A stretch of DNA of 43,648 bases, from positions 1 to 43,648 of the forward strand of contig CAZKRE010000003.1 of NCBI GenBank assembly GCA_964555075.1, read 5' to 3'. Positions within the stretch are counted from its first letter, which is position 1. Every line of letters begins with the position of its first letter. This document shows positions 10,084 to 36,867 of this stretch, piece by piece. Both the position numbers and the translations under genes were made by a program. Under the pieces are notes generated by a model. It was given only the letters and a program-made list of their open reading frames with translations. It was not told where the DNA came from and searched no databases. Source of the stretch: an uncultured Phycisphaeraceae bacterium (lineage in GTDB: Bacteria > Planctomycetota > Phycisphaerae > Phycisphaerales > Phycisphaeraceae).

Positions 10084-10110
10084 GACGCCGCTGACCCCGC
10101 AACACCCCCG

Positions 10111-10143
10111 GAAGCCCACGCATGCCATGCGTGGGCTTCTTTC
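10111..10143. terminator. Bidirectional rho-independent terminator between convergent ugd and the PfkB kinase. Perfect palindrome gaagcccacgcatg c catgcgtgggcttc followed by ttt.
   Basis: 14-bp perfect inverted repeat read in the sequence. It sits in the 81-nt gap between two convergent stop codons. Confidence 0.7.
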
Positions 10144-16409: not shown

Positions 16410-16505
16410 GCCCGGAGGCTCCCGTTCCCGATATCCGCTTCATGCCGCCGCATCGCCGCGTGGGTGTCACGCCCCCACGGCGAGGTGAGGCGGCATTGTG
16501 CGGGT

Positions 16506-16548
16506 TTGGGTAAGCCTCGCCAACCCGGTATTATCGCGGTCCGATAAT
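16506..16548 (+). promoter_or_regulatory. Candidate sigma70-type promoter (TTGGGT -17 nt- TATTAT) overlapped by a palindrome ATTATCG-cggtc-CGATAAT. Possible operator for the ompA-like/exosortase gene block.
   Basis: Hexamers and the 7-bp-arm inverted repeat were read directly in the 230-nt divergent intergenic region upstream of the CDS at 16642. Confidence 0.35.
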
Positions 16549-16641
16549 CCGGGGTGGACCCGCCCGAGCCCGAGGCCAGGAAACCGCGGGAGTCCCGACA
16601 CCCGGGGCCGCGGCACGATGCGAGACGCGAAAGGACGACGG

Positions 16642-17532
16642 ATGAAGGTCAAGGTTCTCCTCCTCACCACGGCGATGGCGCTGGGCACGGTCGGCTGTGT
16701 CGCCCAGGGCGAACGCGACAATCTCCAGCGGCTGTACCGCCAGGCCCAGGAGCAGATCATCGACCTGCAGTCGCAGATCGAAGAGAAGAATGCTCAGATC
16801 GATGCCCTGCGGAACCAGGGGCCGGACCAGGCGACGCTTGCCCGGCTGCGGGCACTCGAGGCGGAGCGGAACGCGCTCCAGCAGGCGCTGGCAGATGCCG
16901 AGGCCCAGCTCCGTGAAGCGGGTACGGCCAGCGTCGCCCTGCCGCAGGACCTGGACACGGCCCTGCGCGACCTCGCCCAGCAGTACCCCGACCTGATGGA
17001 GTACGACGCGCAGCGGGGCATGGTCAAGTTCCGCAGCGACCTGACGTTCGCGCTCGGCTCGGCGGACGTCAACCCCGGGGCGCAGGCGACGCTCCAGCGG
17101 CTGGCGGGCATCCTCCAGCAGCCGGTCGCCCAAGGCTACGAGGTCCGCATCGTCGGCCACACCGACGCGGCCCCCATCCAGCGGCCCGACACCCGCCAGC
17201 GGCACCCGAACAACTGGTACCTGTCCGCCCACCGCGCGATCTCGGTGCGCGACGTGATGGAGCGGGCCGGCCTGCAGCCCAGCCGCCTCGGCGTCGGGGG
17301 CTACGGGCAGTATCGTCCGATCGCTCCGAATGACGCCCGGGGGCAGAGCGAGGCGAACCGCCGCGTTGAGATCTTCATCGTCGAGATGCCCGGCAACGTG
17401 GGTATGGGCGGCGGATCGCCCGCCACCAGCGGCGGCGCGTCGGCTCAGCCGATGCTCGCCCCGGTCGATCCGGCCCCCGCACCGGCCGCGGAACGTCCGG
17501 CACAGCCGGAAACTCCGGAAATGTTTAAGTGA
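16642..17532 (+). CDS. OmpA/MotB-family peptidoglycan-binding lipoprotein with an N-terminal coiled coil.
   Basis: Signal peptide ending in a cysteine (LGTVGC). A roughly 100-aa coiled-coil region follows. C-terminal OmpA-like domain with NRRVEI signature. ATG at 16642 is 7 nt after AAGGA. Confidence 0.8.
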   Translation: MKVKVLLLTTAMALGTVGCVAQGERDNLQRLYRQAQEQIIDLQSQIEEKNAQIDALRNQGPDQATLARLRALEAERNALQQALADAEAQLREAGTASVALPQDLDTALRDLAQQYPDLMEYDAQRGMVKFRSDLTFALGSADVNPGAQATLQRLAGILQQPVAQGYEVRIVGHTDAAPIQRPDTRQRHPNNWYLSAHRAISVRDVMERAGLQPSRLGVGGYGQYRPIAPNDARGQSEANRRVEIFIVEMPGNVGMGGGSPATSGGASAQPMLAPVDPAPAPAAERPAQPETPEMFK

Positions 17533-19270: not shown

Positions 19271-19360
19271 GCCCCCGGCCGGGCTTGCCGCTCCTGCCCC
19301 GCGGGCGGGACGGCACTGCGGGCTAGCCGGGCTCTGAACCCTTGAGATTGGGACAGCGAT

Positions 19361-22300
19361 ATGGACATCAAGAAGCGGCGTCGCCGTCGTGTTGCGACCC
19401 TCATCATCGTCACCCTCACGATCGTCGGCGCCCTGGCGGGCGTGATGTGGCTGCAGGGCCAGAAGCGGGAGAAGGAAGCGCAGTGGCACCGGGCCGAGGG
19501 GCTCGCGGCGGTGGAGGCCGGCAACCACGCGGCGGGGATCGAGCACCTGCGGCGATACCTGGACCGGCGCGCGGACGACGCCGAAGCTCAGCACGCGTTT
19601 GCGAAGGCGAACCTCGAGGTGCCTCAGGCGCGGAACGGTCATTTCCGCCAGGCGCTGGGGGCGCTGCGGCAGGCGGTGGCGCTCGACCCGGACAACCACG
19701 AGGCGACGCGGGAGCTGATCGAGATCTACCGGCTCATCGGGGCGAACGAGCAGACGCTGGAACTGACCGACCGGCTTCTTGCGGCCGACCCGCGGGACGC
19801 CACGGCGATGGGCGACCGGGCGATCGCGCTCTCGCGGATGGGCAAGGGTGCGGAAGCACGTGAGGCGGCCGAGGCCGCGGTTGAGATGGAGCCGAACAAC
19901 TACCGGCTGCACATGATCCTGCTGCAGGTGCAGCAGCACCTCAAGACGTCGCGTGAGGAGCTTGTGGCGTACGGGGCTGGGCAGGCGGAGAAGCACCCGG
20001 GCGACCCGCGATTCGAGCTGGTCGCGGGGCTGGCTTGCGCGATTGCCGGTGGGGAGCACACCGAGGCGGCGAACCGGTGGCTGCGGCAGGCGGCGGGCCG
20101 GCCGCTGCCGGAACCGGGCTTTGCGGCGGACCTGGTTGCGGTGCTCGACACGCTGGGGCTTTGGGGCGACTCGATCGTCGTGCTCGAACGTGCCGCGGAC
20201 CTCGGCGAGACGAACCTCGCCACCGACTACGCGCGCCGCCTGCTCGAAGCGGAGCGGTTCGAGCCACTGGTGGACCGGTTCGGTCAGGCGGGCGACGGCG
20301 GTCGGGCGCTGAAGCTGGAGCAGCAGGTGCTGCTCGCGATGGCGCTGCAGAATCTTGGGCGGCACGAGGAGTCGGGTCGGGTTATCGCGTCGATGGCCGA
20401 GCGGAACGATTCGCCGCTGGCGCCGGTGTGGGCCGAGGTGCTGCGGAAGGCGTACGACGCGAACGTGGAACTGCCCCGGCGGGTCGAGGCGATCAAGGAG
20501 GCGATGACGACGATCATCGACGACGCGTACCTGCACGCGCTGTTGGGCGACGCGAACGCGTCGCTGGGCGACCAGGACATGGCGTTGCAGCACTGGCAGC
20601 GGGCGGCGGAACTGCGGCCGTCGTGGGGCGGGGTGCGGCTGCTCGTGGCGCGGGCGATGCTGAACGTGAACCGGCCGAAGGACGCGGTCGGGTACGCCGA
20701 GGCGGCCATGATCCGCCTGCCCGACAGCCTGCCCGCGGCGGTGACGGTGGTCCGAGCGCGGGCGGAGGCGATGGGGACGATCGACGGCGACACGCCGCAG
20801 CGGCTGCTGGACCTGGCGGAGAAGGTGCAACAGGCGGCGCCGGGCGAGCCGCAGACGCTGATCGCGATGGTGGACATGCTCCCGCGCGTCGGCCGAAAGG
20901 ACGAGGCGCAGCGGATCGCGACCGAGCTGATCGGGCGCGAGGGGGGGCTGCGGCAGGAGCTGCTCGGGCGGCTGGCGGAGGTGAGCCGGCGGCACGCTCT
21001 GGGCCTCGACGAGGCGCTCCAGCAGCAGTACGCCGCGCAGATGGAGGGGACGCCGGAACTCGCGTTGACGCGGGCGACGGGTATGGCCCGGCGCGGACAG
21101 ACCCGGGAGGGCCTGGCGCTCCTCGACAGGGGACTGGTGGAAGCCCCCACCGGCGAGAAGCTGTCGTGGGAGCTGGCACGGGCGGCGTACCTCGACGCGG
21201 TCGATGATCCGGGCGCCGCCGCCACCTGGGTCAAGCTGGCCGACAACAACGCCGACGATCGGCGGGTGCAGCAGATGGCGCTGCGGGCGCGATCGGTGCA
21301 GGGCGATCGGGCTTTCACCGAACGGGTGCTCAACCGGCTGCAGACGCAGATGGGCGAGGGCAACGTGGCGTGGCTGACGGAGCGGGCGCGTTGGTTGGCC
21401 GGCAGCGGGCGGGAGCACGACGCGACGCAGGCGGTGACGATGCTGCGGCAAGTCATCGAGCGAGCGCCCAAGCGGGTTGAGCCGCGGGTCCTGCTCGCGC
21501 AGACGCTGATGCAGCTCAACCGGCCCCAACTGGCGATCCAGGAACTGCGTGCCGGCGAGCAGGCCGTGCCCAAGTCGATCAGCCTGTGGATGGAGCTCGC
21601 CCGCCTGTATCAGGCGGAGCGGGATTTTGCGAACGCCCTCAACTACCTCGACCAGGTCCTTGCCTCGCCTGATCTCGACGACGGTGGCCGTCGCGAGGCG
21701 GCGTCGCTGCTCGCGCGGCAGGGTGAGCATGACCGCGCGATCCAACTGGTGGAGCGGCTCACCGCCGATGACGGCGGGTCACCCGACGAGCGGCTGCTGC
21801 TTGCGTCGCTCTATGCCCGCGCGGGTCGGACCGCGGACGCGGAGCGGCTGATGCCCTCGCTCCTCGAAGAACCGACGGCCCCGTCGCTGGCGATGGCGCT
21901 GGAGTTCTACTCGACCCGGGGCGACGAGGCTCGCGTGCGGGACGTGCTTTCACGGCTGGAAGCGGCGGCGATCCCCGATGCGGCGAAGCGTCGCGTGCTG
22001 GGGGAGTACGCGGCGCGGACCGGCAGGCTCGATGAGGCCGCCGAACACCTCGAAGCGGCGAGCGCGGCGACGCCGCACGACGCGGACATCTGGCGGCAGC
22101 GGACCCGCCTGCACCTGATGCGGGGCCAGGGTCAGGAGGCGATCCGTGTCGCCCAGGAAGCATTGAAGCACGTCGCCCATGACGCGGGTCTCCGGGCGCT
22201 CGTGGAGCACGCGCAGTTGGCGACGTCGTTCGCGGCCGACCCGTGGGGGAGGCGGATGCTACTGGCGATGGTCGAAGACCCGGGGCATGCCGAGCCTGCG

Positions 22301-23446
22301 ACCGCTGCGCTGCGCGCCTTGGGCGGCGGGGATGCGCAGGCCGCCGCGACCTCGTTGAACGAGCTGGCTCGCGCCAACCCCGGGTTCCTGTCGCTCCAAC
22401 TGCTGGCGGCCCGCCGGCTCCTGGAGACAAGGCAAGCCCCCGCGGCGGTGGACGTGGCGACGCGGGCGACGCTGGCGTTCCCCGACAACCTCGAGGCGAT
22501 GGCGGTCCAAGCCGAGGCGATGGCCGCGGCCGGCCGGTGGCGCGACGCGCTGGCGACGGCGTCGGAGTGGCGGCGGCGGAGCGACCCGCCGCCGCTGTCG
22601 GCCGACCTGATCATGGCGGAGGCGCACCTGCAACTCGGCCAACCCGATCGGGCGCTGGAGCGACTCGAACCCCACGCCGAAGCCGCGCGGACCCGGCCGG
22701 ATGACAACCGCGAGGTCGCGGCACGGCTGCTGCGGGCCCTGGTGGCCCTGCGCCGCTACGACGACGCGGAGGCGCTCATTGAGGCGGATCTCGCGACGTC
22801 GCCAACGTGGCGCTCGGTCGTGTTGACGCTGGCGGCCACCACCGTGGAGGACCCCGGCGTCGCCGCGGCGTGGGTCCGGAAGGCGGAGGCAACGGTTGCG
22901 GCATCCGACGTCCGGGAACGGATGGCGACTGCGCAGGCTTGGTGGATGCTGTCGGAGCGGGTGGGCGATCCGGCGATGCTGAGCGAGGCGGCGCGGGCCG
23001 CGACGGAGCTGACCGCCCTTCCCGACGCGCCGGCGCTCGCGTGGTACCAGCGGGGCGTGATCGCGGAGCGGGGAGGGGACATGTCGGCGGCGGAGCCGGC
23101 GTACCGGGAGGCGATCCGCCGCGACCCGTCACTCGCCGCGGCGAAGAACAACCTCGCGATGGTCCTCGTGCAGTCGGGCAACGGGTCCGATGAGGCGTTG
23201 AGGCTGGCCGAGGCGGCCGTCACGGCGGAGCCCGAGAACACCGCCTACCTTGATACCCTCGCCGCGGCGCAGGCCGTTGAGGGCCAAACCGACGCGGCCG
23301 TTCAGACGATGCAGAAGGTCATCGGGCTCGAACCGACGACGAAGCTGTGGTACGAGAACCTGGCCCGCATCCTGCGCGAAGCGGATCGGCCCGACGAGGC
23401 CCAGCAGGTCCTGGATCGGTACGAGGCGCGGGCGCTGCGGATGTGA
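19361..23446 (+). CDS. Very large TPR-repeat protein (1361 aa) with a single N-terminal TM anchor. Analogous to the PrsT TPR protein of exosortase/PEP-CTERM loci.
   Basis: N-terminal RRRRR + VATLIIVTLTIVGALAGVMWL anchor. The remainder of the protein is an uninterrupted alpha-helical TPR-like array rich in Ala, Leu and Arg. Confidence 0.7.
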   Translation: MDIKKRRRRRVATLIIVTLTIVGALAGVMWLQGQKREKEAQWHRAEGLAAVEAGNHAAGIEHLRRYLDRRADDAEAQHAFAKANLEVPQARNGHFRQALGALRQAVALDPDNHEATRELIEIYRLIGANEQTLELTDRLLAADPRDATAMGDRAIALSRMGKGAEAREAAEAAVEMEPNNYRLHMILLQVQQHLKTSREELVAYGAGQAEKHPGDPRFELVAGLACAIAGGEHTEAANRWLRQAAGRPLPEPGFAADLVAVLDTLGLWGDSIVVLERAADLGETNLATDYARRLLEAERFEPLVDRFGQAGDGGRALKLEQQVLLAMALQNLGRHEESGRVIASMAERNDSPLAPVWAEVLRKAYDANVELPRRVEAIKEAMTTIIDDAYLHALLGDANASLGDQDMALQHWQRAAELRPSWGGVRLLVARAMLNVNRPKDAVGYAEAAMIRLPDSLPAAVTVVRARAEAMGTIDGDTPQRLLDLAEKVQQAAPGEPQTLIAMVDMLPRVGRKDEAQRIATELIGREGGLRQELLGRLAEVSRRHALGLDEALQQQYAAQMEGTPELALTRATGMARRGQTREGLALLDRGLVEAPTGEKLSWELARAAYLDAVDDPGAAATWVKLADNNADDRRVQQMALRARSVQGDRAFTERVLNRLQTQMGEGNVAWLTERARWLAGSGREHDATQAVTMLRQVIERAPKRVEPRVLLAQTLMQLNRPQLAIQELRAGEQAVPKSISLWMELARLYQAERDFANALNYLDQVLASPDLDDGGRREAASLLARQGEHDRAIQLVERLTADDGGSPDERLLLASLYARAGRTADAERLMPSLLEEPTAPSLAMALEFYSTRGDEARVRDVLSRLEAAAIPDAAKRRVLGEYAARTGRLDEAAEHLEAASAATPHDADIWRQRTRLHLMRGQGQEAIRVAQEALKHVAHDAGLRALVEHAQLATSFAADPWGRRMLLAMVEDPGHAEPATAALRALGGGDAQAAATSLNELARANPGFLSLQLLAARRLLETRQAPAAVDVATRATLAFPDNLEAMAVQAEAMAAAGRWRDALATASEWRRRSDPPPLSADLIMAEAHLQLGQPDRALERLEPHAEAARTRPDDNREVAARLLRALVALRRYDDAEALIEADLATSPTWRSVVLTLAATTVEDPGVAAAWVRKAEATVAASDVRERMATAQAWWMLSERVGDPAMLSEAARAATELTALPDAPALAWYQRGVIAERGGDMSAAEPAYREAIRRDPSLAAAKNNLAMVLVQSGNGSDEALRLAEAAVTAEPENTAYLDTLAAAQAVEGQTDAAVQTMQKVIGLEPTTKLWYENLARILREADRPDEAQQVLDRYEARALRM

Positions 23447-25593: not shown

Positions 25594-25713
25594 CGCCCTT
25601 CCTGACCGGGGGTTGCGCCGGCCGGCTGGCGTGATAAGCCGATCCGATCGCCACCTTCGGACTCGCAGGTTTTGATATCATGTCCCGCGACCCGCAAACG
25701 CGGGCCCCGCCCC

Positions 25714-25725
25714 GTGGATATCCAC
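25714..25725. promoter_or_regulatory. Perfect 12-bp palindrome GTGGATATCCAC about 35 nt upstream of the fba start. Candidate operator.
   Basis: Read directly in the sequence. It follows a short lower-GC stretch, ttttgatatcatg. Confidence 0.3.
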
Positions 25726-25760
25726 CTGCCCCAGTCTATTCAACGACGGAGACCCCCGAC

Positions 25761-26783
25761 ATGCTCATGACCACCAAGCCCATGTTCGACCTCGCCTACG
25801 AAGGCGGCTTCGGCATCGGCGCGTTCAACGTCAACAACATGGAGATCACCCAGGGCATCATCGAGGCGTGCGCCGCCGAGAAGAGCCCCTGCATCCTGCA
25901 GATCTCCAAGGGCGCCCGCAAGTACGCGAACATGCGCTTCCTCCGCCACATCATCGCGGCGTGCGTCGAGGAGTATCCCGAGGTCCCGATCGCGATCCAC
26001 CTCGACCACGGCGACACCGTCGACCTCGTCAAGACGTGCATCGCCGACGGGTTCACGAGCGTGATGATCGACGGGTCGCACCACGAGTACGAAGAGAACG
26101 TCCGCTTGACCGCCGAGGCCGTCAAGGTCGCGCACGCGGCGGGCGTGGTCGTTGAGGCGGAGCTGGGCATGCTCGGCGGGATCGAGGAGGACGTCGTCGG
26201 CCTCGACGCCGAGGAATACGAGAAGAACCTCGAGAAGTTCCTCACCGACCCCGAGCAGGCGAAGGACTTCTACGCTCGCACCGGCATCGACAGCCTCGCG
26301 GTCGCCATCGGCACCAGCCACGGCGCCTTCAAGTTCAAGCACGAAGCCAAGCTCGCGTTCAACCGCGTCGAGCAGATCATGAAGACCTGCCCGGGCCTGC
26401 CGCTCGTGATGCACGGGTCGTCGAGCGTCCCGCAGGAGTTCATCGACCTCGTCAACCAGTATGGCGGATCGATGCCCAACGCCAAGGGCGTGCCCGAAGA
26501 TCAGATCGCCATGGCCGTCCGGAAGTACGGCGTGTGCAAGGTCAACATCGACACCGACCTCCGCCTCGCGCTGACCGCGAAGATCCGCGAGGTGTTCGCC
26601 ACCAAGCCCAGCGAGTTCGACCCCCGCAACTACCTCGGCCCCGGCCGCGAGGCGATCGTCGGCATGGTCAAGCGCAAGCTCCACATGCTCAACAGCGCGG
26701 GCAAGGCCGACGAGGTCATCAAGCAGTGGAAGAAGGAGGGCGAGCCGATGCCCGACTACTACCGCGCGACCGCGGCAGCCTGA
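25761..26783 (+). CDS. fba: Fructose-bisphosphate aldolase, class II.
   Basis: Class II FBA zinc-ligand region (HLDHGD, GTSHG) and the overall 340-aa architecture. ATG at 25761 (MLMTTKPMF). The upstream portion of ORF 25680..26783 is leader. Confidence 0.9.
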   Translation: MLMTTKPMFDLAYEGGFGIGAFNVNNMEITQGIIEACAAEKSPCILQISKGARKYANMRFLRHIIAACVEEYPEVPIAIHLDHGDTVDLVKTCIADGFTSVMIDGSHHEYEENVRLTAEAVKVAHAAGVVVEAELGMLGGIEEDVVGLDAEEYEKNLEKFLTDPEQAKDFYARTGIDSLAVAIGTSHGAFKFKHEAKLAFNRVEQIMKTCPGLPLVMHGSSSVPQEFIDLVNQYGGSMPNAKGVPEDQIAMAVRKYGVCKVNIDTDLRLALTAKIREVFATKPSEFDPRNYLGPGREAIVGMVKRKLHMLNSAGKADEVIKQWKKEGEPMPDYYRATAAA

Positions 26784-26810: not shown

Positions 26811-26844
26811 GAAGCCCACGCTCCGAGAGCGTGGGCTTCTTTTC
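26811..26844 (+). terminator. Rho-independent terminator after fba: gaagcccacgctc cga gagcgtgggcttc tttt. The stop codon of the convergent giant gene lies inside the T-tract.
   Basis: 13-bp perfect stem, 3-nt loop and TTTT. The same GAAGCCCACGC stem is used at 10111. Confidence 0.75.
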
Positions 26845-29800
26845 ATTCCACGGTTGAAACGCCATCCACCTCACCCGACTGCTCGAGTCGGCGGATCGTG
26901 CGCTCGTACCGCTCCGTGAGGTGTTCCACGGCTCGACGGACCTCGGTGAGCTGGCCGTCCTGCCCGGCTGTCAGCCGCGTCAGCGGCTCGAGCCACGCCT
27001 TCATCAGCTCGAACTGCTCCTTCATCACATAGAGGAAGGTGGCGGGCACTTTGTTGATGACGGTGATCTCCTGCCGGCGCGGCTCGCCGTCGCCGTTGGA
27101 CGTCGGCGTTGCCGCGGCGGGCGGGGTGGCGACGCAGGCCACCGCCTCCGCAATCCGTTCGGCCGCCGCGGTGAAGGCCGCGAGAGACGCGCTGTCGAAC
27201 CGCGCTTCGAGCGGCCGGGTGGCGCGGTCATCCTCCTCCCGCGCGTGGCCGTTGACGTTCGCCGCCTCCGCCGCCGCACGGATCGTGTCGCGGATGTCAC
27301 CCAGGCTCTGATTGAACCCCGACAACTGTGTCAGCACCGCCGCCGTCTTGTCGTCTCCTCCAAGGGACCGCACCTGGTTGTTTCGCTGGAACGTCCGCCG
27401 CATGTCGTCCCACCGCGCCGCCTCGGCCTCCGTCTGGATGCCCATCAGCGCCTTGAACTTCAGCAGGTTCGCCTCCGCGCCCCGCGTGAGCGTCTGTGCG
27501 TCCTGCTCATAGCTCGAAACAATCAGCGTGCGCAGCTCCGCATCGTTCATCACCGCGGCCACCTTCTCAGCTATGCGGTTCATGTTCCGGTACGAGCCCT
27601 GTAACTGGAACGGCGGCTCCGTGCGGTACTGATCCTCCATGCCCGCGGAGCGGATGTACTCCTGGTTGACCTTGAGAACGGTGTCGCGGACGACGAGCAG
27701 CTTGCGGGTGACCTCGACCATCTCGTTGAGTTCCTCGAGGCCGTATTGCCCCTCGAACTCAAGCCCTTCACGGTTGCCGGTTTCGGCGATCTGGACGATG
27801 GCGTAGAGATCCTTTGCGCTGCGGGACGCGAGGCGGTTGAGCGTGGGGTTGCTTGTGAGCGCGTTCTCGAGGTAGCTGAGGCGAAACGCCCGCTCGTGTT
27901 CGCCGAGGTTGTCACCCAGGTTGTAGGTGTCCGCGCGATTGGCGAGCATGTCGGGGATCTGGAACTTGCCGCCGCTCTCGGTGTACGGGTTGCCCGCCAT
28001 GACGACGGCGACCTTGCGGCCGCGGAGGTCGTAGGTGCGGGTGTGACCCTTGTAGACGCCCTCGATTTTGCGCTGCGCGTCGCACAGCGAGATGAACTTC
28101 TGCAGAAACTCAGGGTGTGTGTGCTGGATGTCGTCGACGTACAGCATCACGTTGTCGCCCATCTCGAGCGCGAGGTTGAGCTTCTCGACCTCTTCGCGGG
28201 CGGCGGCGTTGGGTGCCTCCGCGGGGTCCAGCGAGGTGACGCCGTGCCCGATCGCGGGCCCGTTGACCTTCATGAAGATCAGGCCGAGCCGGTTCGCGAC
28301 GTACTCCATCAGCGTGGTCTTGCCGTAGCCGGGCGGCGAGATGACGAGCAGCATCCCCTGCCGATCCGTACGCTTCGACTCCCCCGCCGTGCCGAGCTGC
28401 TTCGCGAGGTTGTCGCCCACGAGCGGGAGGTACACCTCGTCGATCAGCTTGTTGCGGACGAAGCTCGTCAGCACACGCGGCTTGAAGTCGTCCAGCCGCA
28501 TCGAGCGGCGGGCACGCTCAAGAAGATCGTGCTTCAGCCGGGCGTAGGCTTCGAACCGGGGCAAGGCGACCGTCTCGTGATCATGGAGGCGGCGCATGAA
28601 CGCGTTGAAGTTCAGCGTCATTCGGCCGGCTTCGATCCGCGGGTGCGTCCCGGCCAGCCCGTCAAGCTCGCGCTCGACCGACGCCTGAACGATCCGTGCG
28701 ACGTCAACGTGTCCGCGGGTCAGCAGCAGCGCCGCCTCGTCGAGGTACTCCGCCGACCCGGACGCGTCGCTGCCCGCGGCGTCGCGGAACGCCTCCAGCC
28801 AGTCGCGGGCGAGCAGGAACGCCGCAAAAGGCTCGCCGACGCCGCGGACTGAACCTTCGAACGCGCGGCGGTCGCCGGTCTGACCGAGGTGCGCGTCGAA
28901 TGCCTCACGAAGCTGAACCGCCTCCGGGCTGATCGCGAACCCGCCGCCGGTCGTCATCGCCGCGAAGAGGTAGGCGGCGGCGTCATCCAGAGTCGCTGCC
29001 TCGAAGTGTCTGTGCCGCTCGACAAAGGTCGCGAGCATCGCGCGGAGCTCTGCCGTGTACCGCGCCTGCTTGCCGCTGCCGGGGAAGAGACGGGCAACCT
29101 CGGCGAAGCCGGACAACTGCGCCGCGAGCCGGTCTTTCTCCGGCCCTTCCGAGAGTTCCCACGCCAGCGACGCGAGCGTCCGCGCCGCGCTCGGGTGCCG
29201 TAGGAGCCCGATCGTGGCGTCCAGTTCGAGGAGCGCGTGGAGGATGGTCGCCGCGTCCGCGTCATGCACGCCCTTGGTGTACCCCTCGCTGTACCGAGGC
29301 GCCATGTAGCGCTGCACGTGGCCGAGCAGGGCTTCCGGCCTGTCCGCATCGGCGACAGGAACGGCCCGCTCGCGGAACATCCGATACGCCAGCCACTCCG
29401 CGCGGTACACCTCGCGGGTCTCGCTGGCCACCTCCTGGTCCCAAGCGGCCCGCGTCGCCTCGAAGGCGGCGTCGGTGATGGGCTCGAAGAAGTTCGTTCC
29501 CGCCAGATGCAGGTGCATCACGCCGTCGCGGAGGACCGTCGTCAGGTCCACCGCCTGCCGGTTCACCGCGAAGCGGTGTCGGCCGAAGCGGATGATGTTC
29601 TCGCCGTCCTCGAACAGGTCGGCACGGTCCTTGAGCTGGCGGACCGCGTCCTCGCGGATCGTCTTCAGCCGGGTCTGGATGTCATCGACGCGGACGGAGT
29701 CGCCGAAGTCGCCGAGTTCCGCGATGATTCCTCGCGCCTTCTCGATCATGAGGTCCGACGCGAAGTACCCGTCGATCTCGGCGATCGTCGTGAACCCGTC

Positions 29801-32212
29801 AACGCGGCTCTTGACGCCGCCGAGGATACGATCGGCGGCCTGCGCCAAGGCGTTCGTGCGACGGTTCCGCGCCTCGACGAGCCGCAGCTTGCGGTTCTCG
29901 AAGGCGTTGTAGACCTCCTCCCGCTTCTCCGACAACTGCAGCACGAACTCGTCGTGCTCGGCGAACCTGCCTTCGAGTTCCTCGATCTGCACCATCACCC
30001 GCGTGAGCAGGTCCTCCGCTTTCTGCGGCGTGTCCGCGATGTCGAGGTAGCTCACCACGCCCTGATTCAGCAGCTTGAGCTGGCTGTTGAACTCCGCCAC
30101 CCCCTCGGCCTTGCCCAGCTCCCGCGCGCGGTTCTTCAGCCGGGCACGCGCCGCGTTGAGGGTCGAGAACACGGCCCCGATCCCGTCGATGATCTCCGTC
30201 CGTTGCGTGGCGTCGTCGATCCGGAGGTTCCCGACGATCTCGACGAGCATCTCCAGCTCGCGCGAGGCCGTATCAATCTCCGCCCCCAACGCCCTGGCGT
30301 CGAAGCCTTTCTCGACCCCCTCGATCCGCTCGCCGAAGGCCGCGGCGCTCTGGCGGTACGGGTCGAGTGCGTCGGGCTTGAGGAGGTAGTCGACCGTGCG
30401 GCGGCTGATGTCGTCCGCCTGCGCGACGAGATCACGTTCGAGCGCGTCCACCGCCTCGCGAACAACGTACCGCAGCTCGCGCAGGCCGATCACTTCGCCC
30501 CGGAGTTCCCGCAGCCCCGCCAGCGCCCGCACGTAGCCGTGGATGTCGTCGTAGATGCGGGTGGCATTGGCGTTGAGCAGTTCGCCCGCCCGCCGGGTAA
30601 CGTCGGCGACGCGGTCGCGGGTTGTCTTGCGAATCCGCGTGACCTTCTCGAACTCCCCCACCGCCGCCTGCGCTGTGGCTCGGATCTCGCGCAGCGCCTC
30701 CGCGAGGTTCCCGGCCTCCGGCTGGTCGAGCCAGAAGTATGCGTCGAGCACGTTCCCCGCAGACCGCACCAGGTCGAGGTAAACCTCCGCATACGCCTCT
30801 TCCCGCTGCACGAGCTTCAGGACGTCCACACACTCGGCCATTGCGCGGACGATGTCGCGGTTGCCGATCTTGAAGAGCATCGAATCGCTCTTCCGGTCCG
30901 GCACATGGTTAGGGCCGACGTAGGGAGTCTGCCAGATCTGAAGGGCGTGGTGCTTCTGCGGCTCGTCCCCCGGCGGGAGTTTGAAGAAGACCATCGTCCC
31001 GTCGTCGAACAGCGAGAAGCCGTGACAGAGCACCGGCGTCTCCACCCGCTGCTCGATGAGGTTGTACGACAGCAGCGCGTAGTCGCCCCGTTCCCGGTGG
31101 TAGAACACGAACAGCGTGTCCTCTCCGTTCGGACTCGGCAGGCGGCGGTCGAACGCCATCGCGCCCGCTTCGTGCGGGAACACCGTCCGGTCGCCGCTCG
31201 CGAGGTAGTAGCCGTTCGAGAAGATGATGCCGTGATCGTCCGGAAGCAGGACGCAGGCGTCGGCGACCGCGTCAAGCCGGACGACCTCCTTCAGCTTCTC
31301 GTTGAAAACAAAGTGGCGGAACGCTTTCTCCTGGTACGGCCGGACCTTCAGGAGCACGAGGTGCCCCAGCTCCGCGTAGTAGAACTCCGCGTCGTCGAGC
31401 GACTGGTCCGCGTTTTCAACCGGCTCCGAGTAGATGCCGTGCCCACTCGCGGTGTTGTCCTCGACCTTGATGGTCAAGTCGCCCGCGACCGTCTCGACGA
31501 AGACCTTTTCGGCGATCGAAACGTGCGGGTGGTCGCCCAGGCGGTGGTGGTCGCGCGTCGCCCGCTTCCACTCGAACTCGTGTTGCGGGGGGTAGCGGAC
31601 CTCGTGGTCGCTCCGCGCGTCGATGTACTCGAGACTCCGTGGCTTGCTGTCGTCCCCCAAGACAACCCGCCACTTGAACGCCTTGAAGTCGTCCGGCGTC
31701 TTGCCCACGTGGAACTTCATATACAGGTGCGGCCCGCGGGCGTGGAACTTCACGAACCGGGCGCCCTTGTAGTACCGGTAGAGGTCGCGGAAGTCTTTCT
31801 CGAACCGGTCATCGTTCAGCAGGTCGAGCGTTTCGGCATGAAATGTCTGCTCCGCCCGGTCAAAGCGGTAAACGGCGAACACGTCGCCGACGTGCGTCTC
31901 GCTCCGCAGCCCGAACTGCACGTTGTAGCCGAAGAGGAACCGCTCCCCCAGCGCCACCATGTCGCGCGGAACGCAGTTGTGTTCGGTCGTCACCCGCTCG
32001 GTTGCGAGCAGCTTCGTCTCAATCGCGCCGAACACTTCCTTACGCGTGGCGTTCAGCGCTTCCAGGCGGTTGCGGAGCTCGTCGGCCTGGCCCACGAGCC
32101 GGTTGCGGAGGATCTCGTACGTCCCCCGCTCGAGCCGGTCGCCGCTCGCGTCGTCGCGCGCAGTCGCCTGAGGAGCGTTGTCGCCCGAGGTTGTCGTTCC
32201 GTTCTCCGCCAT
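26843..32212 (-). CDS. Giant (1789 aa) soluble protein with one MoxR-like AAA+ ATPase module, at residues about 1290-1430 (nt about 27930-28350). It sits between a beta-rich N-terminal region and long alpha-helical/coiled-coil regions. Function unknown.
   Basis: Walker A SPPGYGKTT (Lys codon at 28319-28321). Walker B VMLYVDDIQH...EFLQKFISL. Sensor/arginine segment VVMAGNPYTESGGKFQIPDMLANRA aligns with the MoxR ATQNP..EGTYPLPEAQLDRF motif. No TM helices. Co-oriented and 70 nt downstream of yqiK. Confidence 0.7.
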   Translation of the reverse strand: MAENGTTTSGDNAPQATARDDASGDRLERGTYEILRNRLVGQADELRNRLEALNATRKEVFGAIETKLLATERVTTEHNCVPRDMVALGERFLFGYNVQFGLRSETHVGDVFAVYRFDRAEQTFHAETLDLLNDDRFEKDFRDLYRYYKGARFVKFHARGPHLYMKFHVGKTPDDFKAFKWRVVLGDDSKPRSLEYIDARSDHEVRYPPQHEFEWKRATRDHHRLGDHPHVSIAEKVFVETVAGDLTIKVEDNTASGHGIYSEPVENADQSLDDAEFYYAELGHLVLLKVRPYQEKAFRHFVFNEKLKEVVRLDAVADACVLLPDDHGIIFSNGYYLASGDRTVFPHEAGAMAFDRRLPSPNGEDTLFVFYHRERGDYALLSYNLIEQRVETPVLCHGFSLFDDGTMVFFKLPPGDEPQKHHALQIWQTPYVGPNHVPDRKSDSMLFKIGNRDIVRAMAECVDVLKLVQREEAYAEVYLDLVRSAGNVLDAYFWLDQPEAGNLAEALREIRATAQAAVGEFEKVTRIRKTTRDRVADVTRRAGELLNANATRIYDDIHGYVRALAGLRELRGEVIGLRELRYVVREAVDALERDLVAQADDISRRTVDYLLKPDALDPYRQSAAAFGERIEGVEKGFDARALGAEIDTASRELEMLVEIVGNLRIDDATQRTEIIDGIGAVFSTLNAARARLKNRARELGKAEGVAEFNSQLKLLNQGVVSYLDIADTPQKAEDLLTRVMVQIEELEGRFAEHDEFVLQLSEKREEVYNAFENRKLRLVEARNRRTNALAQAADRILGGVKSRVDGFTTIAEIDGYFASDLMIEKARGIIAELGDFGDSVRVDDIQTRLKTIREDAVRQLKDRADLFEDGENIIRFGRHRFAVNRQAVDLTTVLRDGVMHLHLAGTNFFEPITDAAFEATRAAWDQEVASETREVYRAEWLAYRMFRERAVPVADADRPEALLGHVQRYMAPRYSEGYTKGVHDADAATILHALLELDATIGLLRHPSAARTLASLAWELSEGPEKDRLAAQLSGFAEVARLFPGSGKQARYTAELRAMLATFVERHRHFEAATLDDAAAYLFAAMTTGGGFAISPEAVQLREAFDAHLGQTGDRRAFEGSVRGVGEPFAAFLLARDWLEAFRDAAGSDASGSAEYLDEAALLLTRGHVDVARIVQASVERELDGLAGTHPRIEAGRMTLNFNAFMRRLHDHETVALPRFEAYARLKHDLLERARRSMRLDDFKPRVLTSFVRNKLIDEVYLPLVGDNLAKQLGTAGESKRTDRQGMLLVISPPGYGKTTLMEYVANRLGLIFMKVNGPAIGHGVTSLDPAEAPNAAAREEVEKLNLALEMGDNVMLYVDDIQHTHPEFLQKFISLCDAQRKIEGVYKGHTRTYDLRGRKVAVVMAGNPYTESGGKFQIPDMLANRADTYNLGDNLGEHERAFRLSYLENALTSNPTLNRLASRSAKDLYAIVQIAETGNREGLEFEGQYGLEELNEMVEVTRKLLVVRDTVLKVNQEYIRSAGMEDQYRTEPPFQLQGSYRNMNRIAEKVAAVMNDAELRTLIVSSYEQDAQTLTRGAEANLLKFKALMGIQTEAEAARWDDMRRTFQRNNQVRSLGGDDKTAAVLTQLSGFNQSLGDIRDTIRAAAEAANVNGHAREEDDRATRPLEARFDSASLAAFTAAAERIAEAVACVATPPAAATPTSNGDGEPRRQEITVINKVPATFLYVMKEQFELMKAWLEPLTRLTAGQDGQLTEVRRAVEHLTERYERTIRRLEQSGEVDGVSTVE

Positions 32213-32282: not shown

Positions 32283-34364
32283 TCAGAGACCGCCCTGCCG
32301 GAGCAGGTCACCCACCGGCTGACCGTCGAGCCCGTTCTGCCGAACCAGACCCAGAAGGCCCTTGAGTTCGCCCCGCAGGCTTTCGGTGTCCGCCACGGTG
32401 ATCATCTTCGCGATGGCGGCGGCGATGGTCAGGTTCTTCACGTCATCTGAAGTCATGTTGAACTTGCCGAGGAAGTGCCCGAGCCGTTCCCGGAAGTCGC
32501 CGCCCTCCCCGCCGTTCCCGTTGACTTCGAAGAACGTGTCACGGACGCGCTGGATCGTGCCCGAGGAGTCGACCAGCCGCTCCACCCGCTTGCCGGCGGT
32601 GACGGCGTCCATGATCTGACGGAAGAACATGCTCTCGCCGCCAACGATGTCGATCTTGGCGGACTTCATCGCTTCGGCAAGCACCTTCGCCTGCTCCGCC
32701 GCGATATCCTTGGCGATGTTGATCTCGGCGAGCTGGATTTGAAGGTCACGGTCGAGACGGAGCTTGAACTCCTCGTGCTCCCGGCCGACCCCGTCGAGCT
32801 TCTTCATCGCCTCGGCCTTCGCCGCGGTGCCCTGGGCCTCTGCGTCGTACCTCAGCCGTAGCGCCTCCGCCTCCGCCGTGCCGCGCTTCGCGATCACGTC
32901 CGCCTCCGCGGCGCCGTACTTCTGCGTGGCGTCTGCCTTCGCCTCCATCACCTCGGCCTCGGCGAGGCCCGCCGCTGCGGCCTCGGCCGCCGTCGCTTCT
33001 GCCAGCAGCTTCTTCCCCGCCGCTTCCTTCTCCGCGGCCGCCCGCTTCGCCTCAGCCTCCACGAGCATCTCGTTCGCACGGTGCCTCGACGCCAGCTCCT
33101 CGGCCTCGGCGGCCTTGACATGCTTCACCATGTCCTGCTCCGCGGCCGCCTGCGCCGCGACCACCTGCACCTTCTTCGCCCGCTCCGCCGTCGCAAACTC
33201 CTGCGTGTCCTTGATCCGCTCCTGCTCCTCGACCACCGCCCGCTCGACCACCACCCGCTCGCGGATTACGTCCTGGATCGACTTCCGCTGCGCCTCGAGC
33301 GCTTTCTCCTTCTCGATCCGCGCCAGCTCCACGACCCGCTCACGCTCCACCGCCTCGAGCGCCTGCTCCCGCTTCACCCGCTCGAGCTCAACCGCGTCCG
33401 CCCGCTCCTTGTTCCGCTGCGCGACGAGGATCGTCCGCGATTTGTTCTCCTCCGCGATCCCCAGTTCCTCGTCCGTCGTGATCTTCGCCCGCTCGCCGCG
33501 GATCCGCTCCTCCTCGGCCACCTGCATCCACTGCGCCTTCTCCCGCGCCCGAACGGTCTGGATCTCCCGCTCCTGCCTCGCCTCCGCCTCGGCCTGCTGC
33601 CGCTCGAGTTCGAGGATCGCTTCCCGCGCCTCGACGTCCTGTTTCTTGATCGTCTTCTCTCGCTCGCGGTTGATGCTGTTGGCGAACATCGCCTCGCGGG
33701 CCGTGAGCTCCGTGATCTTCTTGATGCCCTCCGCATCCAGGATGTTGTTCGGGTCGAGGTTCTCGACGTCCGTCTGCTCGAGGTAGTCGATCGCGGCATC
33801 ATCGAGCACGTAGCCGTTCAGCTCCGTCCCGATGTGGGTGATGATGGCCTCCTTGAACCGGTCCCTTTCCGTGTAGAGCTCGGTGAAGTCGAACTTCTTG
33901 CCGACCGTCTTGAGCGCCTCGCTGAACTTCGCGTCGAACAGCTCCACGAGCTTGAGCTCGTCCGATGCCCGCCCGCACCCGATCGACTGGGCCACCGTCA
34001 GGACGTCCTGGGCCGCGTTGTTCACGCGTACGAAGAACGCCACCTTGATGTCCGCCCGCACGTTGTCCCGGCAGATCAGCCCCTCCGACCCGTGCCGGAA
34101 GATCTCCACCCGCTTGAGGGAGATGTCCATCACCTCCGGCCGGTGCAGGATCGGGACGATCGTCGCGCCGTTGAAGAAGACCTTCATCCCGCCCACGCCC
34201 GTGCGGACGATCGCCGTCCCCGGCTCGACCTTGCGGTAGAACCGGGATACCACAACCAAGGTCCCGGCGACCGCGATGATGAGGATCAGTACCCCGATCC
34301 CCGCGATCCCGCCCACGACCTCCGCCTGCGCCAATAGCATCGAGAAATCACGCACCACCCACAC
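32283..34364 (-). CDS. yqiK: Flotillin-like SPFH/band-7 protein (YqiK family). N-terminal TM anchor, SPFH domain, and an extended Glu/Ala-rich coiled coil.
   Basis: Matches YqiK/flotillin: the TM helix, then AIVRTGVGGMKVFFNGATIVPILH, the SPFH core, and EA-repeat coiled coil. The exact start is ambiguous between GTGs at 34364/34358/34355 and an ATG at 34340. GGAAGGAG overlaps the yqiJ stop. Confidence 0.85.
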   Translation of the reverse strand: MWVVRDFSMLLAQAEVVGGIAGIGVLILIIAVAGTLVVVSRFYRKVEPGTAIVRTGVGGMKVFFNGATIVPILHRPEVMDISLKRVEIFRHGSEGLICRDNVRADIKVAFFVRVNNAAQDVLTVAQSIGCGRASDELKLVELFDAKFSEALKTVGKKFDFTELYTERDRFKEAIITHIGTELNGYVLDDAAIDYLEQTDVENLDPNNILDAEGIKKITELTAREAMFANSINREREKTIKKQDVEAREAILELERQQAEAEARQEREIQTVRAREKAQWMQVAEEERIRGERAKITTDEELGIAEENKSRTILVAQRNKERADAVELERVKREQALEAVERERVVELARIEKEKALEAQRKSIQDVIRERVVVERAVVEEQERIKDTQEFATAERAKKVQVVAAQAAAEQDMVKHVKAAEAEELASRHRANEMLVEAEAKRAAAEKEAAGKKLLAEATAAEAAAAGLAEAEVMEAKADATQKYGAAEADVIAKRGTAEAEALRLRYDAEAQGTAAKAEAMKKLDGVGREHEEFKLRLDRDLQIQLAEINIAKDIAAEQAKVLAEAMKSAKIDIVGGESMFFRQIMDAVTAGKRVERLVDSSGTIQRVRDTFFEVNGNGGEGGDFRERLGHFLGKFNMTSDDVKNLTIAAAIAKMITVADTESLRGELKGLLGLVRQNGLDGQPVGDLLRQGGL

Positions 34365-34373: not shown

Positions 34374-35087
34374 TCAGAACCCGCGGACGTAGTACACGCC
34401 CGCCCGTTCGTCCTGTTCAACGATCACCGCCTCGTCCCCGCGGGCGAGTGCGTCTTCGTGTCTCGTCCGCACGTTCAGCAGCAACGGCGCGCCGCCCGTT
34501 GAGAACTCCGCCTGCCCGGTCGTCCCCGTCACGCGCGAGGAGGTGACGCGGCAGACCTTGCCGATCAGCTGCAGGTCCGCCCGCCGCTCCTCTTCCCGCA
34601 TCGCGCGGAAGAGCCGCTTGAGCGGCCACGTCACCGCCTTCATCACCAGCGTCGCCACGGCGAATGCCGCCACGAGCAGCGCCACCTGTAACAGGGGCGT
34701 CCAGTCCCGCGTCACCGGGTACAGCCCGACGCTGATCGCCCACATCACGAACGCGAGCACCGTCAGCACGACCATCAGCGGCACGTCGCCGAGGTTGAAG
34801 AATCGCAGCACCGCCGTGGAGACACCCACTTCCGCGACCGACGTCTGTGCCCCGGACGCCGCGCCGTCGCCGACCGCGTCGAACTCCGCGCCTCCCCCGG
34901 CCGCGCCGCCGGACCCGGCGTCAAGCCCCGGATCGAGATCGCCGCCACCCACCTCGAGATCCACGTCGAGCGCGTCCGCCGAGATCCCCCCGACCACCAC
35001 GATCAGCCAGTAGACGCCGCACAACCCCAGCAGTACGGTCAGCCAAAGGTTCGTCGGTGCGAAGATGGCTTCGAAGAAAGGGCCCAT
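34374..35087 (-). CDS. yqiJ: NfeD-like/YqiJ-family membrane protein (OB-fold C-terminus), the cognate partner of SPFH proteins.
   Basis: Four TM helices, an acidic linker, and a C-terminal OB-fold segment (VTSSRVTGTTGQAEF...VIVEQDERAGVYYVRGF). It ends 9 nt before yqiK. ATG at 35087 is 5 nt after GGGGAGA. Confidence 0.75.
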   Translation of the reverse strand: MGPFFEAIFAPTNLWLTVLLGLCGVYWLIVVVGGISADALDVDLEVGGGDLDPGLDAGSGGAAGGGAEFDAVGDGAASGAQTSVAEVGVSTAVLRFFNLGDVPLMVVLTVLAFVMWAISVGLYPVTRDWTPLLQVALLVAAFAVATLVMKAVTWPLKRLFRAMREEERRADLQLIGKVCRVTSSRVTGTTGQAEFSTGGAPLLLNVRTRHEDALARGDEAVIVEQDERAGVYYVRGF

Positions 35088-35418
35088 GGGTCTCCCCACC
35101 GCGATGACGACCGCATCCCGGATCGAGGCGCCTCGTGCCTCGCCCCCTGAGACTTGAGTGTGACTATATCAAAGCGGACGTCCCGCTCGTGCGGCCGGCT
35201 CGGAGGTTCGTCCCGCTTCTGCGAGGCGGCGCAACGGGTCGGAGTGGCCGCGGTCCAGATCCCATGGAGGACGCGCGGGTGTGGTAGCCACACGCCGTCG
35301 ACGATCGCCGCTGAGCCATCCGATCCAACCCGCTCGGCGGCTCAATGGATATTGCCATATACTTGTCTTTAGACGCGGCCGCTTTCCTTGCCCGCGTGAC
35401 GCCTTCCCGGAGCACCCG

Positions 35419-36867
35419 ATGACCCAGACGAAACAGATCCGCCCCGCGCCCCGCGTGATTCAGGGAGGCATGGGTGCCGGCGTCTCCAACTGGCGCCTCG
35501 CCCGCCGCGTCGCTGAACTCGGTGGCCTCGGCGTCGTGTCCGCGACCGGGATCGACACCATCCTCGTCCGCGAACTGCAGCAGGGCGACCCCCATGGCCG
35601 GTTGGCCGTCCTCGCGTCCTATCCGGACCGGGCCATCGTTGCGGAACTGTCCGAGCGTTTCTTCGTCGAAGGTGGCATCGCCGATGGCGCGCCGTTCAAA
35701 CTGCTCCCGATCCACGGCTTCAAGCCCTCCGTCCGCTCGCAGCGAATCCTCGCCGCCGCCGCGTACAGCGAGGTCGCCCTCGCGAAGCGGGGCCATGAAG
35801 GACAGGTCGGCATCAACCTGCTCACAAAACTCAAACGCCACTCCCTCGCGAGCATCTACGGCGCTCTGCTCGCGGGTGTCGATGCGGTGCTCATGGGTGC
35901 CGGCATCCCGCTCGAGGAAGCCGCGCAGATCCCCCGGCTGGCGGCGGGCGAGCCCGGACGTCTCCGGCTGGAGGTCGACACCTCCGCCGCGACGGACCCG
36001 ACGGCCGAGTACTTCTACGACTTCGACCCCCGCTGCGTTACCGACCCGCCGCCGGTACTGCAGCGGCCGGCGTTCTACCCCATCATCTCCTCCGACCTGC
36101 TCGCCCGCGTTCTGGCGAAGAAGCTGCCCCGCGAGGGGGTCACCGGCTGGATCATCGAAACCCCCATCGCGGGCGGGCACAACGCCCCGCCGCGTGGGAA
36201 GCAGTACGACGAGCAACAGAACCCCGTGTATGACAGCCGTGACCAGACCAACCTCGATGCGGTCGCTGCGCTCGGCTACCCCTTCTATCTTGCGGGTGGC
36301 TACGCCACCCCGGAGAAGCTGCGCGAGGCCCTCGCAGCCGGCGCGGCGGGGGTCCAGGTCGGCTCGCTCTTCTCGCTCGCCGACGAGTCGGGTTACCCGG
36401 CTGATTACAAGCGGCGGCTCATCGAGGCGATCCACCGCAAAGAGGTCTCCATCCGCACGGATGGCCGGATCTCGCCCACCGGCTTCCCGTTCAAGGTCGT
36501 CGAGAGCAGAGGCGTTTGGCCGCCCGTGCCCAGGCCCGAGGAGCGTCGCCGCATCTGCGACCTCGGCTACCTGCAGACCGCGGTGGTGGACGGAAACGGC
36601 CGCCTCCAAGGCCGGTGCCCTGCGGAGCCGGTGGACACCTATGTCCGCAAAGGGGGCGAGGAGAGTGAGACCGTTCGCCGCGGCTGCCTCTGCAACGGCT
36701 TGATGGCGAACATCGGCGTAGGCCAGCGGCGGTCCTGGGGGGAGGAGCCGCCGCTTTTCACGGCCGGCGACGAGATCCTGCATCTGTCGCTCGGCTCGAT
36801 CGAGACCCCCCACTACGCCGCGGCAGACGTGATGGACTACCTCCAAGCCGCCGAAGCCGCGACCTAG
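35419..36867 (+). CDS. Nitronate monooxygenase (2-nitropropane dioxygenase-like FMN enzyme), long form with a Cys-containing C-terminal extension.
   Basis: GGMGAGVS FMN-binding signature near the N-terminus and the overall NMO TIM-barrel pattern. ATG at 35419 is 7 nt after GGAG. Confidence 0.8.
   Translation: MTQTKQIRPAPRVIQGGMGAGVSNWRLARRVAELGGLGVVSATGIDTILVRELQQGDPHGRLAVLASYPDRAIVAELSERFFVEGGIADGAPFKLLPIHGFKPSVRSQRILAAAAYSEVALAKRGHEGQVGINLLTKLKRHSLASIYGALLAGVDAVLMGAGIPLEEAAQIPRLAAGEPGRLRLEVDTSAATDPTAEYFYDFDPRCVTDPPPVLQRPAFYPIISSDLLARVLAKKLPREGVTGWIIETPIAGGHNAPPRGKQYDEQQNPVYDSRDQTNLDAVAALGYPFYLAGGYATPEKLREALAAGAAGVQVGSLFSLADESGYPADYKRRLIEAIHRKEVSIRTDGRISPTGFPFKVVESRGVWPPVPRPEERRRICDLGYLQTAVVDGNGRLQGRCPAEPVDTYVRKGGEESETVRRGCLCNGLMANIGVGQRRSWGEEPPLFTAGDEILHLSLGSIETPHYAAADVMDYLQAAEAAT

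Follow-up and report, generated by a model that had tools for sequence, protein, structure and literature searches.

A 1789-residue DUF3686/DUF7902 ATPase encoded in a flotillin operon: domain layout, conservation and possible role

We analysed a stretch of 43,648 nucleotides from an uncultured Phycisphaeraceae bacterium (GenBank assembly GCA_964555075.1, contig CAZKRE010000003.1, positions 1 to 43,648), referred to below as the window. Its minus strand carries a gene for a 1789-residue ATPase (26843..32212). The question raised by this locus is what a protein of this size does with an AAA+ core placed far from its N-terminus, and which proteins it works with. The ATPase belongs to the family, characterized by the Pfam domains DUF3686 and DUF7902, that was described by Ravi et al. 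(mSystems 2024, PMC11237479), and its architecture is not new. The most informative feature of the locus is the operon that joins the ATPase to a flotillin and a YqiJ-like membrane protein. This operon lay outside the view of the original prediction, a note on the DNA that had reported a MoxR-type core in the ATPase. We regard the family as a strong candidate for a regulator that acts on bacterial flotillin scaffolds with the energy of ATP.

The AAA+ module and the domains around it

The open reading frame (ORF) comprises 1789 codons, and its GC content at the three codon positions (GC1 0.69, GC2 0.41 and GC3 0.89) follows the pattern of a real gene on this contig of 68% GC. The long overlapping ORFs on the antisense strand lack coding-like values. 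The interval 27930-28350, in which the original prediction had placed Walker A, Walker B and a sensor-1/arginine segment, lies inside the ORF and covers about residues 1288-1428. All of these motifs were found where the original prediction had put them, as was K1298 (nt 28319-28321, codon AAG), and they were invariant in 79 homologues (G1295, G1297, K1298, T1299, D1360, D1361, N1408, P1409 and R1426). The motif features of the core are as follows:

28313..28336, minus strand, residues 1293-1300: Walker A, PPGYGKTT (sequence and alignment)
28121..28141, minus strand, residues 1358-1364: Walker B, YVDDIQH (sequence, alignment and model)
28028..28069, minus strand, residues 1382-1395: pre-sensor-1 beta-hairpin (model)
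27932..27997, minus strand, residues 1406-1427: sensor-1/arginine-finger segment, AGNPYTESGGKFQIPDMLANRA, with N1408 and R1426

AlphaFold2 models were built from the homologue alignment for residues 1151-1789 (mean predicted local distance difference test score, pLDDT, 77.5, and about 85-93 in the ATPase core) and for residues 1-1200 (mean pLDDT 84.8). In the first of these, helix alpha0 (1255-1273) is followed by beta1 (1287-1291), Walker A and beta2 (1312-1317). Strand beta3 (1355-1360) bears Walker B, beta4 (1401-1407) leads into N1408, and R1426 directly precedes beta5 (1427-1431). PPGYGKTT fits the pattern GxxGxGK[ST] on beta1 and VMLYVDD fits hhhhD[DE] on beta3, both being invariant, and the polar sensor-1 residue after beta4 and the arginine finger before beta5 occupy the places expected in an AAA+ protein. 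The hairpin strands, 1382-1387 and 1390-1395 (232-237 and 240-245 in model numbering), are located between alpha3 and beta4. A candidate sensor-2 motif, GSYRNMNR, was found at residues 1539-1546 (nt 27575-27598), and its R1542 is invariant. Helix 2 is interrupted by a conserved stretch, residues 1318-1335, modelled as a short helix and a loop and not as a hairpin.

To express conservation, we used the median identity to the window protein of 71 full-length orthologues from genomes of seven phyla, aligned end to end. For the AAA+ core (residues 1251-1432) this value is 82%. Because the P-loop, D1360, D1361, N1408, P1409 and R1426 are invariant, the core is conserved to this degree and the AlphaFold2 core has the AAA+ fold, a chance motif was dismissed. 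The ATPase is a genuine gene, and its AAA+ motifs are real.

Neither model contained a second alpha/beta nucleotide-binding fold. When the AAA core profile was aligned by hhalign with 15 other 200-residue slices of the ATPase, all probabilities were 5% or lower. The ATPase has exactly one AAA+ module and is therefore not midasin- or dynein-like: midasin/Rea1 and dynein carry six concatenated AAA modules, whereas the window ATPase has one, and no MIDAS domain. The contrast with these proteins drawn in the original prediction thus held, and the extra degenerate AAA modules that it had allowed for were seen neither in the models nor in the slice comparison. Its second reservation, that the Walker motifs might belong to a STAND/NACHT module, also fell away. 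This reading was ruled out by nSTAND Pfam matches that stay below their cut-offs, by the modelled pre-sensor-1 beta-hairpin and by the invariant arginine at the finger position.

Judging from the model, the AAA+ module is probably MoxR-class and closest to the CbbQ/NorQ subgroup. Its closest structural neighbours are MoxR-family protomers, with CbbQ aligned over 243 residues at 14% sequence identity. AAA_5 (PF07728), which we take to be the Pfam model covering CbbQ and NorQ, was the sole Pfam model to align across the whole core. It matched 34 of 34 orthologues (best E 9.5e-9) and reached 20.5 bits on the window protein, against a cut-off of 22, over profile positions 2-125 of 139; PF00004 scored similarly on the ATPase. 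AAA_3 (PF07726), the model for MoxR proper, matched only 13 of the 34 orthologues (best E 0.017), and the window protein was not among them. The MoxR-type label of the original prediction therefore stands for the class and not for MoxR proper. Comparisons with other AAA+ proteins stayed short: phmmer and a family-profile hmmsearch against PDB sequences returned only P-loop/beta2 matches to p97, CDC48, Rix7 and RuvB (E 1e-4 to 1e-6), and NCBIfam gave just sub-threshold CDC48 and RuvB matches. When the profile of the AAA+ core and lid was aligned by hhalign with single E. coli sequences, the 92% probability of ClpX and FtsH rested on just 30-35 P-loop columns; the alignment with RavA was the longest, at 83 columns, with a probability of 20%, and that with McrB spanned 24 columns.

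MoxR ATPases form ring-shaped remodellers, and contact with the target is made by an adaptor, normally a separate VWA protein. CbbQ and NorQ (PDB 6l1q, 9qh4) are stand-alone proteins of ~260 aa with a separate VWA/MIDAS adaptor (CbbO, NorD), whereas the module of the window ATPase is embedded at 1251-1616 of 1789 residues, carries a propeller on a helical arm in cis, and has Asp-Asp in Walker B (D1360-D1361, invariant family-wide) instead of the usual Asp-Glu. No VWA match was obtained by Pfam in the ATPase or, at several loci, in its neighbour genes, and residues 1-1200 showed no Rossmann-like fold. The departures from a typical MoxR protein are thus the embedding in a giant protein, the Asp-Asp Walker B, the helix-2 insert in the form of a conserved loop, and the lack of a VWA/MIDAS partner; a MoxR-class module is evidently able to work without one. 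RavA of E. coli, which works with ViaA, resembles the window ATPase in adding a non-AAA domain to a MoxR-class core, but it has 498 aa and a VWA partner in the same operon. The added LARA domain of RavA docks onto a large partner assembly, LdcI.

The two models and the orthologue comparison gave the following layout, from N-terminus to C-terminus, all on the minus strand:

residues 1-27: disordered N-terminus (AlphaFold2)
residues 29-61: helix before the propeller (AlphaFold2)
30929..32014, residues 67-428: beta-propeller, the core of DUF3686 (all-beta model, ~26 strands, pLDDT ~90)
29618..30880, residues 445-865: helical-bundle arm, with helices of up to 58 residues
28715..29548: small beta unit (889-911) and all-alpha domain (937-1166) (AlphaFold2)
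residues 1202-1238: long helix (AlphaFold2)
27917..28462, residues 1251-1432: AAA+ alpha/beta core (AlphaFold2)
27365..27916, residues 1433 to about 1616: alpha-helical AAA+ lid (model and the 243-residue CbbQ alignment)
26846..27364, residues 1617-1789: C-terminal tail, partly disordered (AlphaFold2 and orthologue comparison)

One AAA+ domain and a propeller on a helical-bundle arm are thus predicted by structure modelling, the check that the original prediction had proposed. Its placement of the AAA+ core at residues about 1290-1430 was right as to location but too short, as the module extends over ~360 residues (about 1255 to about 1616) and not 140. Much of the ~360 C-terminal residues that it had described as non-AAA is in fact the lid. 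Its picture of ~1290 N-terminal residues consisting mostly of coiled coil was replaced by a propeller of ~360 aa, helical bundles of ~420 aa, the small beta unit and an all-alpha domain of ~230 aa.

DUF3686 (PF12458) matched residues 45-493 over its entire length (profile 1-448 of 448; E 6e-193, 641.8 bits against a cut-off of 25), and DUF7902 (PF25472) matched residues 614-698 (nt 30119-30373) within the helical arm, at 95.4 bits against a cut-off of 26. Median identity is 56% across phyla for the propeller region, 58% for the lid and 33% for the poorly conserved region of the small beta unit and all-alpha domain, which had no Pfam match. By Foldseek, the propeller region matched the propellers of prolyl oligopeptidase, WD40 proteins, Vps18 and clathrin, all generic matches with low TM-scores. 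A protocoatomer-like identity (IFT-A, clathrin, Vps18, nucleoporin) was considered and rejected, as the likeness is confined to the propeller. The C-terminal tail is lineage-specific, being absent or different outside Planctomycetota, Omnitrophota and a few others. Orthologues from Bacteroidota, Clostridia and Verrucomicrobiota end near residue 1645 and have no such tail, and those of Proteus, Vibrio and Hymenobacter are likewise devoid of the disordered tail. A tail motif, QF..LM..W, occurred in only 12 of 72 sequences, and the orthologue of a Desulfobacterales genome (locus L012) ends in ankyrin-repeat-like sequence.

The flotillin operon and its conservation

The ATPase gene is the last of three genes that, together with a hairpin, make up the following features:

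34374..35099, minus strand: gene 1, YqiJ/NfeD-like membrane protein of 241 aa (GC3, transmembrane segments, BLASTP)
32283..34364, minus strand: gene 2, YqiK-type flotillin of 693 aa (hhalign to YqiK)
26843..32212, minus strand: gene 3, DUF3686/DUF7902 AAA+ ATPase of 1789 aa (Pfam, GC pattern)
26811..26839, no strand: perfect, GC-rich 13-bp palindromic hairpin, GAAGCCCACGCTC-CGA-GAGCGTGGGCTTC, then TTTTC

These genes form a three-gene operon because they share a strand, are separated by only 9 nt (genes 1 and 2) and 70 nt (flotillin and ATPase), are preceded by a divergent gene, and are followed by the hairpin before a convergent aldolase gene (25680..26783, plus strand). One terminator-type hairpin was found, against 0.1 expected. 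It is located between the stop codons of the ATPase and aldolase genes, solely after the ATPase gene, and is likely a bidirectional terminator that marks the end of the operon.

The 241-aa protein has coding-like GC3, three hydrophobic segments resembling transmembrane segments, and a C-terminal OB-like segment. It matched E. coli YqiJ by BLASTP (E 3e-4), and its orthologues matched Pfam YqiJ_N above the cut-off and NfeD weakly. In the 693-aa flotillin, a single N-terminal transmembrane segment is followed by an SPFH domain, then by a long helical region rich in Glu and Ala, and finally by a C-terminal domain (residues 560-693). Its family profile aligned with E. coli YqiK by hhalign at a probability of 99.9 (E 1.5e-35, 410 columns). 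Pfam did not recognize the window's flotillin even at E <=10, and the family profile had no match among PDB sequences; its homologues bear the names 'flotillin family protein' or YqiK, and one of them (P0127) has a Band_7 match. The ATPase itself has no hydrophobic segment able to span a membrane and is predicted to be a soluble protein.

The pairing of these genes is widespread. More than 5800 clusters of full-length ATPase homologues were found (98-100% query coverage, 53-71% identity), and in family representatives of ~1600-1900 aa the AAA+ module occupies the same position, at about residues 1200-1640. In a scan of one genome per species, the ATPase was present in at least 588 species, from lineages that include Planctomycetota, Verrucomicrobiota, Kiritimatiellota, Bacteroidota, Desulfobacterota, Clostridia and Omnitrophota. 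Operon partners were counted at the 62 loci for which 4.5 kb or more of upstream sequence was available. A flotillin gene lies directly upstream on the same strand at 59 of the 62, spanning at least seven phyla, and a YqiJ-like gene is also upstream at 55. In the reverse direction, each of three flotillins of the same subtype that were taken as starting points (3/3) has the ATPase immediately downstream. The genes outside this triad vary from genome to genome. Annotated copies of this triad are also found on replicons of Streptomyces, Deinococcus and Pseudomonas, and homologues occur in genera of well-studied species (Proteus mirabilis, Vibrio campbellii, Pseudomonas fluorescens pQBR103, Streptomyces, Deinococcus and Hymenobacter). 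A search of a representative library of 1.84 billion proteins gave 838 matches. The best 150 of these were all of the same architecture or fragments of it, with no relatives outside the family and no stand-alone ancestor among them.

Some loci differ in detail. At locus L053 (4307-5973), two small genes with weak DUF3592-like and DUF6141-like matches are inserted between the flotillin and ATPase genes, and gaps of similar size (1.5-1.7 kb) separate the two genes at L020, L029 and L027. Two unrelated genomes have genes of the tellurite-resistance type close to the triad, namely TerB_N/TerB in a metagenome-assembled Hydrogenedentes genome (L084, 15434-17452) and TerD in a Streptomyces plasmid (L092, 15131-15664), which may be a coincidence.

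A second membrane-associated scaffold protein, PspA, recurs beside the triad. A PspA gene was found at 13 of 82 loci, all in Bacteroidota; it is upstream of the triad in 12, and 11 of those 12 also have a CesT/Tir-like gene. In Leeuwenhoekiella (L082), for example, the gene order is CesT_Tir_1, PspA, YqiJ-like, flotillin and ATPase. The megaplasmid pQBR103 of P. fluorescens SBW25 (L091/L093, 84437-97641) carries a co-directional cluster of ten genes, which begins with YjfI family, PspA/IM30, rhomboid, DUF2491, DUF350, DUF1190 and glutathionylspermidine-synthase-like genes and ends with genes for a 217-aa hypothetical protein, an SPFH protein and a 'DNA repair ATPase'. PspA thus joins the flotillin-ATPase cluster in two distant lineages. 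The pQBR103 cluster combines a yjfIJKLMC-like PspA/polyamine module with the YqiJ-like/SPFH/ATPase triad.

Ravi et al. (2024, PMC11237479) reported the same PspA association. By comparative genomics they placed a beta-propeller/coiled-coil/AAA+ protein in operons with YqiJ/YuaF and Band-7/flotillin genes, with or without CesT/Tir-PspA, noted that abbreviated operons without PspA are widespread, and proposed a chaperone-like function in putting together membrane-linked complexes; they assigned the AAA+ module to no clade. The window ATPase shares with that family the domain order, full-length colinear homology at 44-71% identity, and the upstream flotillin and YqiJ-like genes; the gene order at the Leeuwenhoekiella locus L082 confirmed this link. 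It differs in its Planctomycetota-type C-terminal tail and in its 'abbreviated' operon, which has no CesT/Tir-PspA genes; a tblastn search of all 43.6 kb of the window gave no homologue of PspA or CesT. Literature searches yielded no paper using the name DUF3686, none pairing flotillin with 'DNA repair ATPase' and nothing relevant pairing flotillin with MoxR, and recent papers on YqiJ/YqiK and SPFH proteins made no mention of the ATPase. As far as this literature shows, the present additions are the AAA+ clade, the lack of a VWA partner, the operon conservation counts and the finding of no support for a DNA-repair name. The result for the window is modest: it adds a further orthologue to a family that Pfam and one comparative-genomics paper had already recorded.

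Possible roles of the ATPase

The function, assembly and disassembly of bacterial flotillins are debated, and we know of no ATP-dependent regulator of these proteins. Here a soluble ATPase is tied to a flotillin and an NfeD-like partner in hundreds of species of at least seven phyla. The conserved operon and the 82% identity of the core therefore make the ATPase an obvious candidate for such a regulator. Our preferred reading, to which we give a probability of about one half, is that the ATPase is a ring-forming remodeller of flotillin/YqiJ scaffolds, and of PspA scaffolds, that would use its propeller and arm as an adaptor and act in an ATP-driven manner under envelope stress.

By this remodeller reading, the AAA+ module would assemble into a hexameric ring, as in CbbQ, NorQ, RavA and other MoxR ATPases. 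The N-terminal propeller on its long helical-bundle arm would substitute for the separate VWA adaptor and might attach the ring to the flotillin/YqiJ assembly from its cytoplasmic side and, where PspA is encoded, to PspA polymers. The energy of ATP hydrolysis could then serve to build, take apart or turn over these membrane scaffolds under envelope stress, in parallel with the action of Vps4 on ESCRT-III. The analogy with HflK/C-FtsH and with Vps4-ESCRT-III/PspA is one of logic only, a membrane scaffold or polymer with a ring ATPase coupled to it genetically. Homology with those systems extends to the SPFH and PspA partners, whereas the ATPase differs from FtsH and Vps4 in being MoxR-class and not of the classical AAA+ clade and in having neither a protease nor an MIT domain. 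A more specific version, in which a hexameric CbbQ/NorQ-like ring with six propeller-tipped arms is the dedicated energy source of flotillin microdomains, grips YqiK-type cages and PspA polymers, and uses ATP to assemble or dismantle them, is tentative and, in our view, rather doubtful. If this version is correct, the family would act as a 'Vps4 for flotillin', no SPFH/flotillin scaffold having had a known ATP-driven regulator before, and would be a MoxR-class enzyme whose VWA adaptor has been swapped for a fused beta-propeller.

Several points weigh against the remodeller reading. Gene adjacency indicates a functional link but does not tell which of the proteins is the substrate, and 3 of the 62 loci have no flotillin within 6 kb, the upstream genes there being unrelated. 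The MoxR-class call draws on predicted structure and one sub-threshold Pfam alignment, and sequence-only comparisons were ambiguous. The Asp-Asp Walker B is unusual in MoxR-class AAA+ proteins, and hydrolysis may be slow, regulated or regulatory. Finally, no experimental study of any member of the DUF3686/DUF7902 family was found in the literature.

The operon linkage would fit equally well if the flotillin were the platform and not the substrate, with the YqiJ/flotillin assembly recruiting or enclosing an ATPase that serves as a maturation or quality-control chaperone for other membrane proteins. There are models for such an arrangement: SPFH proteins are known to scaffold AAA+ machines, as HflK/C does in caging FtsH, and NorQ and CbbQ, the closest folds, remodel specific client enzymes, maturing cNOR and Rubisco, respectively. 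However, no client gene is conserved beside the triad, as flanking genes differed in every genome examined, and the sole further neighbours to recur are PspA-type scaffold proteins. The ATPase also has no protease domain and no VWA/MIDAS adaptor. We see a platform role for the flotillin as the main alternative, if rather unlikely, and as likelier than the proposals that follow.

Defence systems often include giant NTPases with helical arms, and a large coiled-coil NTPase could act as the sensor or effector of an anti-phage or conflict system with membrane partners. Occasional neighbours of the triad (TerB, HicAB, Uma2, TerD), the few copies on megaplasmids and a weak PADLOC match of the ATPase to IetA (E 0.0049, over 30 P-loop residues) point in this direction. 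The PADLOC scan covered seven ORFs of the window, including the three operon proteins (two of the seven are antisense to real genes by GC3), and gave nothing significant for any of them; the flotillin and the YqiJ-like protein had no match at all. No effector domain (nuclease, protease, TIR or pore) was detected, the core is extremely and uniformly conserved across phyla (82%), unlike fast-evolving defence genes, and the window context is housekeeping metabolism. None of 50,697 phage records contained the family, and of 72,556 plasmid records just 13, mostly megaplasmids, carried it. A defence function is thus very unlikely.

Least probable of all, with hardly any weight left to it, is a role as a DNA repair ATPase, as the databases have it (Pfam catalogues DUF7902 and describes DUF3686 as 'ATPase involved in DNA repair', and the NCBI name of homologues is 'DNA repair ATPase'): the long helical regions recall SMC/Rad50 only superficially, as the AAA+ module is contiguous and not a split ABC-type SMC/Rad50 head and no SMC/Rad50 families were matched, Pfam, NCBIfam and fold searches showed no DNA-binding, nuclease or helicase domain, membrane proteins are the conserved neighbours, and no paper supporting the name was found. 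The proximity of polA, 7.5 kb away in the window, was rejected as support because it is not conserved: polA is encoded on the other strand, with two unrelated genes in between, and was absent beside the triad in eight other loci. Although many entries carry the name, nothing tested here supported it beyond the name itself.

Other genes of the window

The surroundings of the operon (peptidase, MFS transporter, sulfite reductase, Mur ligase, exosortase, aldolase and PolA) are an ordinary chromosomal, housekeeping context. Among the ORFs submitted to Pfam and NCBIfam, two further ones were antisense to real genes by GC3. Just past the divergent NMO-like gene beside the operon (35281..36867, plus strand), an 806-aa protein with DUF6785 and DUF6784 is encoded at 37008-39428 on the minus strand. 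The segment 8401-10165 contains no confident gene; its sole long ORF (8506..10128, minus strand, 540 aa) failed the GC3/GC2 filter and had no Pfam match. On the plus strand, an exosortase EpsH-DUF3485 fusion (17645..19270) has an OmpA-family gene (16498..17532) on one side and a gene for a 1361-aa multi-TPR protein (19361..23446) on the other, and the region 16498-23446 looks like a PEP-CTERM/exosortase-type cluster.

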